UHGV virus genome: UHGV-0174141
Strand: one strand, 5' to 3'
DNA length: 50,880 nucleotides
Source of the DNA: a virus
The position numbers were made by a program. Positions 21,001 through 24,000 of the stretch are shown here, in pieces (position 1 is the first letter of the stretch; every line of letters begins with the position of its first letter).

Positions 21001-24000
21001 CTGGCAATCACTTAACCGGAAGTATTCTGAACTTCAGCAGGAGTATTACCGGTTACGGCGCCCATTTAGCGTGTCGGTCACGGTGCCATATACCGACGTC
21101 TGGACACATAAGCCGGTTCAGTTTTATCCAGGTAAGCACCCATGCGAAAAACCTGCCGATATGCTTCAGCAGATCATTACTGCAAGCAGCCGGCCAGGGG
21201 ATGTCGTAGCTGATTTCTTTGCTGGTTCTGGTTCCACACTAAAGCAAGCTGCTCTGCTCGGGCGGAGTGGAATCGGTGTTGAACTGGAAACCGAGCGGTT
21301 TGAACAGACGGTCAGTGAAATACGCAATTTGCTTGAGCACCTACCACCACAACCAAATCCCTTGCCTTAGAGCTAAACCGGGCGTCAGCCAACGGATAAA
21401 CGTATCCGGAAAATTGAGATCGCAGGAACGACCAACAAACGGTAATCCGTATGGAGAATAACCCGTTGAGGAAGAGGCCTGGCCGGAACCGTAACCGGCA
21501 CTTATATGGCTGCGGGGCCAGCGTCTGAAGCGAATCACGATCACGATGCGAAAACTACATGTCCCAGCTGCGCGCAAAGTGACTTAAGGCAGGGCCACAA
21601 TTTGAATCTGCGACAACTTAGGTTGGTCGCTCCGTATCAGTAAGCGGATCCACCTGGCTCGCATTCGCGGGCCTTTTTCGTATCTGCGCCACGCTCGGCG
21701 TTATTTAACCACAGAGCCTTTCAGGGGTGAGCCATAGGGAATAGTCAGTGTGACTGTCTCTGTGGGCTGATCATTCCTGAGCGCTGGCTCACCCGCTAAA
21801 AGGAAAGTCACTATGTTTGGTATTTTTAAAAAGAAAGCCCGTAAAGCCGTTGTTGAAGTGAAAAAAATGGAAAACCGCGATGCCGTAGAAGCCACCGTCT
21901 GGGGAGCGTACTCGATTGCATACGCCGATGGTACCTGCGATGCAAAAGAGATTGCAGTGCTGGAGAAGACTATTTCGGCCCTCCCGGCATTCGCGCCATT
22001 TGCTGGTGAAATTGCCCAGATGAGTTCGAATATTCGCGCCCGCTATGAAGCATCACCACGTTCAGCCAACGCTCAGGCGTTGCGCGAACTGGCTGACGTT
22101 GCCGGGACGGATGACGCTGTCGATGTTCTTTGCCTGTGTCTTGATGTAGCTGATAACGACGGCATCGGGGAAGAAGAAGAGAAACAGCTGAAGAAAATTG
22201 CCCAGGCTCTGCAACTTCCATTGGACCAGTACCTGTGATCGGTAAACTTCGCTGGGCCGCAGCTGGGGTGCTTTTGTTTCTGGTGGTTGCTATCGACTTC
22301 ACCAGCAAAATGATGTCAATCCTGGCTGATGGCGTGCTGGTAGCCGGGGTAATCGCTTTGCTCTGGCCCCATATTAAACCCAGTGATTAGCACTGTGCAA
22401 AAGGCATCGTAATGGTGCCTTTGACAGAGTGTCAGTTATTGACGCCGCCTATGACTACATCCTAAATTATGCGTGTGGTGAATCCCCCTATGCGGAGGGG
22501 CATTGCCAGTCTGATATGTTTTTTTGCGCATTGCGAGTCGTCTGTGGACTGGCGGCGACTTACCGGGAGGCACCCGGCACCACACCTAATAAAAAATGAT
22601 GATAGCTGTAAGGCCCACTTCGGTGGGCTTTTTCTTTGGGCAAAAAAAAAGCCCGCATGGTTTCATGCAGGCAAGGCAGTTACATTTAGATTTTGTCCCG
22701 GTATATGTTTTTTTGTCCGGAAGTCGAAAGATACTGTCTCGAATACATTTTGTAAATAACGGATTCAAATCACAAGGCCATGCATTTGCATGGCTTTTTT
22801 ATTTGTGCCACCAGAGCATCATTCACTCTGTGCTTTGTCGTTAATCCATCTGGCGGCCATCCTAAAGGACTATCTGCTGAGTTCTTTTTTCAGAGGTTGC
22901 ATTTTCTTCAGTACCTCATCTGAATTAGTGACTGAGAAACCCGTCGGGAAAAATAGCATTCCATCGGATGGATGTTCATCGTGCCAGTGCTTCGTGGTGG
23001 CCATCGTATGAGCGTCGAGATAACTGGTGTAAGCATCAAGGAGAGCGTTTTTCCTGCGCCTCGGGGCGTAAGGTAGCAACTGGTTGAAATCAGCATCGCT
23101 GATAAGCCTGAATGGATAAGAGCCTCCTTCAATAGCCTCAATTTCGCTTAGCAACTTTCCCCGCAGTGGTGCGGAATGCTTCCTGAACTCTGCCTTACGT
23201 GACGAATGGTTACTGATTAGTGACGGAATAAAGAGCCCTAGCAGTGTCAGTATCACTCCGATTACTGAAATAATTTCCATGAGATTTCCCTATGCCTGAT
23301 TTTATTTATTCAGTATTACCCGTGGTGGGATTCGGTTTTTCTTGTTTTGGTCTTGGATACATCCTTGGCTTCGTACGCGGACGAGACTGAACAAGAAGAA
23401 TAAATCCGTCTGAGAGGGTGGTGAACCCTGATATTTTTACAGTGATTTTTGGTGGCTGTCACCTGGCGGCCATCCTATTTTCCCCTCGTTCTGAGAGGAT
23501 CCACAGCAATAGAGGGGGCTAAATGTCCGATCCTGTTTCTGCCACAACGATAGCAGCTGGTGGACTGTTCGGCGCCAGCCTATTCGGCCTGGCAACTGGT
23601 ATTGATTACGGCGTGGTATTTGGCGCGTTTGCTGGTGCGGTGTTCTATGTCGCAACGGCGGTGAATATTAGCCGCATAAAGCTGGTGGGCTATTTCATCA
23701 CTTCATTCATATTCGGTGTGATTGGTGCTCCTCTGCTGGGGTCGTACTTCTCAAAGTGGACTGGTTACAACGACAGGCCGCTTGATGCACTCGGAGCGGT
23801 AATCGTGGCAGCCATAGCTATAAAGCTGCTGACTTTCGTAAACAGTCAGGACCTGGGTAGCCTGTTTGGGATTCTCTCTCGCTTACGTGGAGGAGGGACA
23901 AGCAATGGTAACAAGTGATCCGAGCGCAATCATTAATGCGGTGATATGCGCTGTAATTGTTGTTGTGCTGATGTTCTACCGGCGTGATGGGTCAAGACAC

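Follow-up and report, generated by a model that had tools for sequence, protein, structure and literature searches.

The genes tciA, tciB and tciC of phage P1 were scored as non-essential in a genome-wide CRISPR interference (CRISPRi) screen (PMC10695390), and their operon is absent from about half of one subgroup of P1-like elements (PMC9603915). A preprint on the P1vir transcriptome lists the tci genes by name only, as 'cell-division control', and our literature search returned homology-based naming of tciA and tciB but no functional study. TerB, the protein to which TciA is related, works with the membrane protein TerC in a complex (PMC12054061); membrane association has been reported for TerB, and membrane-linked TerB proteins occur in Bunzi and Shango (bioRxiv 10.1101/2022.05.11.491447). 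In DjlA, a TerB-like domain is tethered by its own transmembrane helix. As to genomic setting, Tree et al. described a layout in which cargo coding sequences follow the Q-antiterminated promoter PR' and are themselves followed by convergent small RNAs (sRNAs) (PMC4104026). Here, we analyse a tciA-tciB gene pair (tciAB) and its RNA leader in UHGV virus genome UHGV-0174141, a stretch of 50,880 nucleotides referred to as the window. A preliminary description of this DNA had proposed a 141-aa TerB-like protein gene, overlapped by a hydrophobic open reading frame (ORF) of about 51 codons, as a late-expressed cargo pair headed by a structured leader and followed by terminators.

We are nearly certain that this locus is the lambdoid-prophage copy of the P1 tciA-tciB accessory module. 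TciA aligns with P1 TciA over 141/141 residues with 84% identity, and TciB shares ~50% identity with P1 TciB over 30 residues. As in the window, P1 TciB is a DUF3927 protein encoded directly downstream with a stop/start overlap; in the window, the overlap consists of the GTGA at 22235-22238, which is common to both ORFs and provides the tciA stop and the tciB start. Close phage relatives carry the annotation 'tellurite resistance protein | TciB-like protein' and RefSeq E. coli prophages the annotation 'TerB family protein | DUF3927 family protein', and tciA/tciB are present in P1 as well as in many Klebsiella, Enterobacter and E. coli prophages. That is, the gene pair is ordinary as found, since the module has already been named and is routinely annotated. 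The preliminary description had overlooked this, and also that the leader is a recurrent RNA motif that is not specific to tciA. The module is accessory in both phages, but its surroundings differ: in P1, C1 controls the operon that they share with tRNAs and ban, whereas the window has them within a lambdoid late operon, ahead of the sRNA gene STnc100. Moreover, P1 tciA lacks the leader motif (no match in the P1 locus, L001, to the leader model R1 described below), whereas the tciA of the window has it. The window contains no homologue of P1 TciC, for which a tblastn search yielded only chance-level matches of 6-8 residues elsewhere. As a separate observation, an 82-nt segment of the window (21421-21502) is 95% identical to positions 69329-69410 of phage P1, which lie upstream of P1 tciA inside plp, a gene annotated on the opposite strand, and which are also found on hundreds of P1-like E. 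coli plasmids. This segment could be a remnant of shared module ancestry or an unannotated element.

The assignment of the 141-aa protein to TerB was borne out by sequence, profile and fold comparisons alike. TciA scores 30 bits against Pfam TerB (PF05099; gathering cut-off 24.4) and matches PHROG 632, 'tellurite resistance', end to end with 216 bits. A search of 1.84 billion representatives returned only 183 relatives at E<=1e-3, most of them stand-alone proteins of 140-150 aa with 30-40% identity. In the family alignment, which comprises 82 of these relatives with 26-67% identity, all 82/82 match Pfam TerB, and two acidic D-G-x(4-5)-E motifs are evident, with G40/E46 and G117/E122 kept in at least 90% of the 82 sequences. 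The profile of this family matches Klebsiella TerB (2JXU_A) with E=1.3e-28, positions 5-143 of the profile corresponding to residues 11-150 of 153, and also matches 2OU3 and 2H5N. An AlphaFold2 model with six helices was obtained with a predicted local distance difference test (pLDDT) score of 92.5 and a predicted template modelling (pTM) score of 0.83. Structures of the TerB superfamily rank first for this model in Foldseek; the top match is 2H5N (probability 1.0, template modelling (TM) score 0.52-0.57), albeit with an E-value of only 0.02. The ratio of non-synonymous to synonymous polymorphism (pN/pS) of tciA is 0.03, indicating purifying selection. These data show that TciA is a full-length, soluble six-helix TerB-fold protein with a basic N-terminal helix.

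The overlapping hydrophobic ORF had likewise been placed and described correctly, and conservation, selection and family membership identify it as a real, coupled gene. TciB scores 50.3 bits against Pfam DUF3927 (cut-off 25) and 81.4 bits against phrog_1470, 'TciB-like'. It contains two hydrophobic stretches, at about residues 6-20 and 26-45, with DFTSK between them and basic residues near both ends. Of 98 TciA-encoding loci examined (on 80 viral contigs, in 15 genomes, in P1, in one phage and in the window), 94 have a homologous small ORF immediately 3' of the tciA relative, a pairing well beyond chance, with a 4-nt NTGA overlap in 86 and a 1-nt overlap in 8; the remaining four comprise two loci with a 1-nt deletion, one truncated contig and one unclear case. 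The two deletions, which frameshift tciB in the metagenomic loci L008 and L011 at ~4495, may reflect sequencing error or real decay. Even beside the most distant relatives (43-66% TciA identity) the small hydrophobic ORF is kept. Among 57 distinct tciB sequences, variable sites are distributed over the three codon positions as 32/22/50 and pN/pS is 0.12. Residues D32 and P45 are invariant and R6, D21, F22, T23 and S28 nearly so, while DFT, S-x-x-(A/S)-D and the proline near the C-terminus are retained at 22-45% identity. In addition, 209 clusters of TciB-homologous proteins were retrieved, mostly annotated as 'DUF3927 family protein' and stemming from Klebsiella, Enterobacter, Citrobacter, Leclercia and E. 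coli. One database protein of 196 aa (P0095) is a natural in-frame TerB+DUF3927 fusion of P1-type genes, which could again be a sequencing error or real decay. The GTG start codon of tciB has no Shine-Dalgarno (SD) sequence ahead of it. Thus, by every sequence criterion, the data support tciB as a real gene that is coupled to tciA.

The window represents a lambdoid prophage whose nearest relatives are Klebsiella phages (best match 96.6% identity over 74% of a 1.3-kb query). The gene pair is flanked by Q/PR' and the lysis cassette, with which it shares its strand (Table 1), and related phages show the same order. It is co-oriented with the late operon and located ~2 kb downstream of a pR'/qut-like site recognised by eye, with three terminators in between (at 19822, 20131 and 21656); the last of these closes a 440-nt spacer that follows the methyltransferase gene. 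We take the AACGATGGG element of this site to resemble the pause element of lambda pR'. In E. coli prophages, the order is also the same: antiterminator, tRNAs, leader, TerB, DUF3927, STnc100 and holin. Because this layout matches the one described for cargo genes (PMC4104026), we assign tciAB to the PR' moron slot of Shiga toxin (Stx)-type phages. The proposed cargo status is thereby upheld, and it agrees with the behaviour of the P1 homologues, which are non-essential and missing from some P1-like elements; the direct demonstration of dispensability, by CRISPRi knock-down, concerns the P1 homologues only. As the pair sits behind three terminators in the stx2 cargo slot and the scan detected no sigma-70-like promoter on the plus strand upstream of it, late transcription through read-through by Q-modified polymerase is plausible and would be the simplest reading. 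The tRNA genes expected at this site in Stx-type phages were not detected by ARAGORN anywhere in the window. Rfam reported one tRNA match at 7965-8090 on the minus strand (40 bits, spanning 126 nt), which is absent from the ARAGORN output and may represent either a tRNA interrupted by an insertion or an incomplete tRNA marking an attachment site.

The leader is the more interesting part of the locus. The 130 nt ahead of the tciA ATG are far more conserved than their flanks, and homology between loci begins right after the upstream terminator, whose sequence is variable. The leader remains ~90% identical even where TciA identity drops to 43% (L096), and it is also present ahead of a divergent 143-aa TerB gene in E. 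coli. Its proposed helices comprise a 5-bp hairpin (P0), P1 (CCACAGAG/CUCUGUGG), P2 (GGGUGAGCC/GGCUCACCC), an extension P3, which is only 76% paired and hence weak, and an inner hairpin (P4). Since P1 crosses P2/P3, the RNA would be an H-type pseudoknot or else adopt two alternative structures. The thermodynamic fold of the single sequence, one long nested hairpin with z=-2.3, is weak and was not used as evidence. Conservation and covariation, the latter for a hairpin and the two crossing helices, not only sustain but strengthen the earlier proposal of a structured leader ahead of the pair. In a plain MAFFT alignment of 18 class-A leaders (A3), all five covariation measures beat 500/500 shuffles and all slid controls, with the caveat that a single register-shifted row, L041, accounts for most double changes in P2, which is better supported by classes C and D. 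A covariance model built from class A leaders only (R1) scores 159 bits at 21684-21812 and retrieves diverged leader copies with E-values from 1e-5 to 1e-16. Nearly all copies match over their full length and are oriented as the downstream gene, and in 18/18 diverged copies checked the match ends exactly on the ATG of that gene. In the R1-derived alignment, P1 is 95.8% paired with double changes at 7/8 pairs, while a model fitted to P2 gives 96.6% pairing and double changes at 8/9 pairs. Fitted alignments lean to the fitted helix, but distinct versions of the helices can be read straight from the sequences. P1 occurs, besides the version given above, as CCAUGGAG/CUCCAUGG, AACCACAA/UUGUGGUU, CACAGAA/UUCUGUG, CUCAGAA/UUCUGAG, GAAAGU/ACUUUC and CGAUA/UAUCG; P2 as GGUGAGCC/GGCUCACC, GAUGAGCC/GGUUCAUC and UGUGAGCC/GGCUCACG; and P0 as GCGCC/GGCGC, CCGCC/GGCGG, ACGCC/GGCGU and GCGUC/GACGC. 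The G-U pairs occur on the gene strand, which fits an RNA read in the direction of the gene.

As an alternative to P4, the 3' strand of this hairpin can base-pair with the stretch from SD to AUG (P5), and compensatory versions of this pairing were recognised by eye in five sequence classes. The mean duplex energy of P5 is -9.0 kcal/mol for cognate as compared to -6.2 kcal/mol for non-cognate combinations (standard deviation 2.3), with 2/7 cases being no better than shuffles, which lends P5 moderate support only. We hypothesize that P5 could act as a sequestering helix. Rfam 15 gave no match at gathering score at 21684-21812 or 36340-36472, the only hit at E<=5 being a 19-bit snoRNA chance match, nor did Rfam match the leader copies in 18 related loci. 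The promoter scan revealed no promoter inside or just before the leader; candidates picked by eye are weak and not conserved between classes. Readings of the leader as a sigma-54 or sigma-E promoter, a boxA/boxB (nut) site or a ribozyme resembling that of hepatitis delta virus were dropped upon inspection by eye, as spacing or helix order did not fit.

Copies of the leader precede many other genes. The window itself harbours a second, diverged copy; a terminator at ~36300-36327 precedes it, and its end is marked by the ATG of a gene for a KilA-N/P63C protein (36470-37225; Pfam) within the tail-gene block. The class to which this copy belongs also precedes ant in the Stx2 phage 933W, where ant is located between R and Rz. 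Further copies are found ahead of genes in phi80, mEp043, mEp213, mEp237 and mEp390, ahead of an HNH endonuclease gene, several genes for tail-tip-domain proteins and unknown genes, and, in HK639, before a gene that is flanked by terminators and sits between those for the major tail protein and the tape measure. In the IMG/VR contig 2788499822_000003 (L165:4754-5724), a class-A leader stands before the gene for a 281-aa solute-binding protein with a signal peptide (NMT1_3/phosphonate-binding-like), in place of tciA. It follows that the leader moves between cargo genes as an exchangeable module. Among phage records, blastn returned ~310 members of the class of the second window copy, 30 of the tail-region class and ~47 of the tciA class. 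Of 54 distinct upstream contexts, 47 contain an intrinsic terminator, variable in sequence, that ends 5-33 nt, usually 5-21 nt, before the motif.

We did not find a description of this element in Rfam 15 or by limited full-text literature queries, and it looks like an apparently uncatalogued, widespread cis-acting RNA of lambdoid-phage cargo genes. Tentatively, and with slightly less than even confidence, we propose that it is a portable cassette of ~115-135 nt, consisting of a 5' hairpin, two crossing helices, conserved linkers such as CUUUCAG and a fixed SD sequence, which lambdoid phages place directly after an intrinsic terminator and before horizontally acquired cargo and which sets or gates translation of this cargo in the Q-antiterminated late transcript. 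In some classes, the cassette would include an inner hairpin, the 3' strand of which has the SD-AUG spacer as an alternative partner. The cassette could sense a ligand, insulate the gene from its context, be processed or cleave itself, or serve as the translational operator for some common factor of phage or host origin. Since the genes that it precedes are unrelated, their products are unlikely to use it for autoregulation. Known pseudoknotted operators and 5'-UTR elements include the leader pseudoknot of T4 gene 32, the rpsO/S15 operator and H-type pseudoknot riboswitches. Like these, the leader of the window has helices in a proposed H-type arrangement immediately 5' of the SD sequence and conserved single-stranded linkers, but it shares neither sequence nor model similarity with any Rfam family and is nearly always located after an intrinsic terminator.

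Table 1. Features of the window surrounding tciAB, and the second leader copy
Feature	Position	Strand	Evidence or remarks
Q-like late antiterminator gene	18891..19739	+	phrog_127 'anti-termination protein Q-like', 319.7 bits
Candidate late promoter and pause element, TTGCAA-N16-TGTGTAATTT then AACGATGGG	19754..19846	+	by eye
tR'-like intrinsic terminator	19822-19841	+	terminator scan
63-aa ORF with terminator at 20131-20148	downstream of the 19822-19841 terminator	+	
N6/N4 DNA methyltransferase gene	20291-21370	+	Pfam/profile scan
Intrinsic terminator GGCTCGC-ATTC-GCGGGCC + T5	21656..21680 (21656-21673)	+	ends ~12 nt before the leader
Conserved structured leader, 130 nt	21684..21812	+	P0, P1 crossing P2/P3, inner hairpin P4, SD AAGGA
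tciA, ATG start, 141 aa	21813-22238	+	sequence and ORF list
tciB, GTG start, 51 aa	22235-22390	+	sequence and ORF list
STnc100 sRNA gene	22444..22641	+	Rfam RF02076, 99 bits (gathering 47), model positions 1-206
Candidate convergent sRNA	22643..22756	-	promoter-like 22756-22728, terminator 22672-22651
Two holin-family ORFs, slight overlap	23523-23918, 23866-24186	+	Pfam Phage_holin_8, PHROG 217
Endolysin gene	24186-24815	+	family scan
Second, diverged leader copy	36340..36472	+	R1 42.2 bits, E=5e-10; R2 65.3 bits

The preliminary description was only partly right in having terminators follow the pair: plus-strand terminators are present downstream at 22610-22631 and 22774-22797, but none is located directly 3' of tciB, and the first of them forms the 3' end of the separate sRNA gene STnc100 rather than that of the pair. 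STnc100 has a promoter-like TTGACG-18-TAAATT at 22439-22468, and the scan assigned it the terminator at 22610-22631 as its own. It was found 3' of tciB in 10/17 lambdoid loci checked with the Rfam model, sometimes with a tRNA gene in between, whereas blastn placed it after tciB in 10/92 loci only. In Stx2 phages, STnc100 lies 75 nt after stx2B (PMC12370729). The idea that STnc100 represents the short pR' transcript was rejected, as a better pR'/tR' candidate lies right after Q and STnc100 is downstream of stx in Stx phages. On the opposite strand, consensus scan and sequence revealed a promoter-like TTTACA-17-TATCTT, together with a strong terminator, GCCTGCATGAAACCATGCGGGC + T9, that faces the terminator of STnc100. 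The candidate sRNA delimited by these elements has no match in Rfam; its arrangement with STnc100 is like that of the convergent sRNA/anti-sRNA pairs reported for PR' moron sites (PMC4104026). Between this sRNA region and the holin genes, the minus strand contains an ORF of 136 codons (22870-23280) whose product has an N-terminal hydrophobic segment and is not matched by any Pfam, PHROGs, PADLOC or NCBIfam family; this ORF may likewise be cargo, in the opposite orientation.

As the best overall explanation, towards which we lean by a small measure, P1-type tciAB would be late-operon cargo whose products form a membrane complex with a role in membrane protection. In this scenario, the genes would be transcribed from the Q-dependent late operon through Q read-through, and translation of tciA would be set or modulated by the folded leader. 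TciB would be made by termination-reinitiation after TciA and may insert into the inner membrane as a helical hairpin whose two ends both face the cytoplasm, serving as membrane partner or anchor for TciA. By analogy with the TerB systems introduced above, such a TciA-TciB membrane complex is likely, and so is the late-expression step. In an induced or infected cell, the complex might then stabilise or monitor the inner membrane against membrane-directed insults, for example by superinfecting phages or pore-forming colicins. This last step is a guess by analogy, prompted by the inhibition of phages and the colicin resistance associated with ter operons.

Several points weigh against this explanation. 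TerC/TerD/TerZ are required for the ter phenotypes, and the scan of the neighbouring genes revealed no ter gene: terZ, terA, terC, terD and terE are all missing near tciAB, where the methyltransferase, the sRNA gene, the holins and the endolysin were covered, and from the same surroundings in related loci, the search having been confined to these neighbours. Neither TciA nor TciB matches any PADLOC-DB 2.0 family at E<=0.1, Shango and Bunzi included, nor is either protein matched by an NCBIfam equivalog. The membrane topology of TciB is a prediction from hydropathy and charge only. With respect to expression, the late promoter candidate at 19754-19846 falls below the threshold of the consensus scan, and the same scan, which detected no sigma-70-like promoter on the plus strand between 19650 and 21820, is a crude test that an unconventional or leader-internal promoter would escape. 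Finally, the P1 genes are part of the repressor-controlled ban operon and are not late, so that timing depends on context and 'late' is no property of the module as such.

Alternatively, TciAB could be a lysogenic conversion factor, produced in the lysogen through read-through or from a promoter that escaped recognition, which protects the host against tellurite, zinc/manganese or oxidative stress, as ter operons have been proposed to do. The homology of TciA to TerB invites this reading, which we consider rather unlikely: ter genes are induced by zinc and manganese and terC aids resistance to zinc, manganese and tellurite, but the minimal unit is reported to be TerC with TerD or TerZ and not TerB alone (PMC12054061), and none of these is encoded among the neighbours scanned. 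The conserved acidic DG..E motifs could bind metal, and in P1 the genes belong to a prophage-regulated operon, whereas in the window a terminator is located directly upstream, no promoter-like site was found by the scan, and the position is that of Q-dependent cargo. It is also unlikely that TciAB is an accessory of lysis timing that acts on the inner membrane before holin triggering, in an antiholin-like manner or against premature collapse of the proton motive force, and thereby tunes burst size. Although ~1.1 kb separates the pair from the holin genes (23523-24186), which follow downstream on the same strand and belong to the same late operon, tciAB is far from the lysis genes in P1, and knock-down in P1 causes no plaque-forming defect. 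TciB resembles many holins and antiholins in being a small two-segment membrane protein, and 933W has another motif-led cargo gene inside its lysis cassette, yet neither TciA nor TciB matches a holin or antiholin family.

We regard it as improbable that the pair is a toxin-antidote or abortive infection module in which TciB would be a membrane-damaging toxin and TciA its neutraliser or sensor. In size and hydrophobicity TciB is reminiscent of type I toxins, and TerB domains occur in Bunzi and Shango, but the search of PADLOC gave no match, and neither an antisense RNA nor a match to a toxin family was found. The strict gene order and translational coupling would tie synthesis of TciB to prior translation of TciA, and features of the leader are compatible with translational sequestration; however, frameshifted tciB (L008, L011) and the fusion P0095 exist without any sign of compensatory loss of tciA, and TciA is far more conserved (pN/pS 0.03) than usual antitoxins. 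Already disfavoured, and very improbable, is the view that the small ORF is a chance or untranslated frame and that only the TerB gene is functional. The GTG start codon, the missing SD sequence, the length of only 51 codons and the 1-nt deletion in two metagenomic loci are what one would expect of such a frame. Against this stand its retention in 94/98 loci, the third-position bias (32/22/50) and the pN/pS of 0.12, the persistence of the DFT and SD residue motifs at 22-45% identity, and the curated Pfam and PHROG families with their 209 clusters.

Returning to the gene pair itself, what is added here to the routine annotation is that the TerB fold is confirmed, that the small ORF is under selection and coupled, and that the slot is the Stx-type PR' cargo site. 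With TerB domains now being found in defence systems, a minimal two-protein module of TerB and membrane peptide would provide a convenient model for TerB at the membrane. As for the leader, the occurrence of one covarying RNA motif before many unrelated cargo genes, as in 933W, phi80 and HK639, suggests a shared, uncatalogued layer of post-transcriptional control for morons. If true, the leader bears on the expression of prophage cargo at induction, some of it near virulence genes, and it could represent a natural 'plug-in' cassette for translation initiation.

In comparison with known systems, TciA has the same size, the same all-helical fold and the same paired DG..E motifs as Klebsiella TerB (2JXU), at ~20-25% identity. 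Both proteins are proposed to work at the inner membrane with a membrane partner, which for TerB is the multi-pass protein TerC and for TciA would be the 51-aa DUF3927 protein. Bunzi and Shango likewise feature membrane-linked TerB domains, for which 'membrane surveillance' has been proposed, but they possess extra enzymatic partners that are absent from tciAB. With regard to genome position, stx has no leader copy as far as tested, and in 933W only ant was seen with one. The dependence of stx2AB on Q read-through is expected for tciAB by analogy only. Yet the PR' morons exemplified by stx2AB occupy the very slot in which tciAB is found, with Q, terminator(s) or tRNAs, cargo, an STnc100-type sRNA and lysis genes following each other in the same order around a different cargo.

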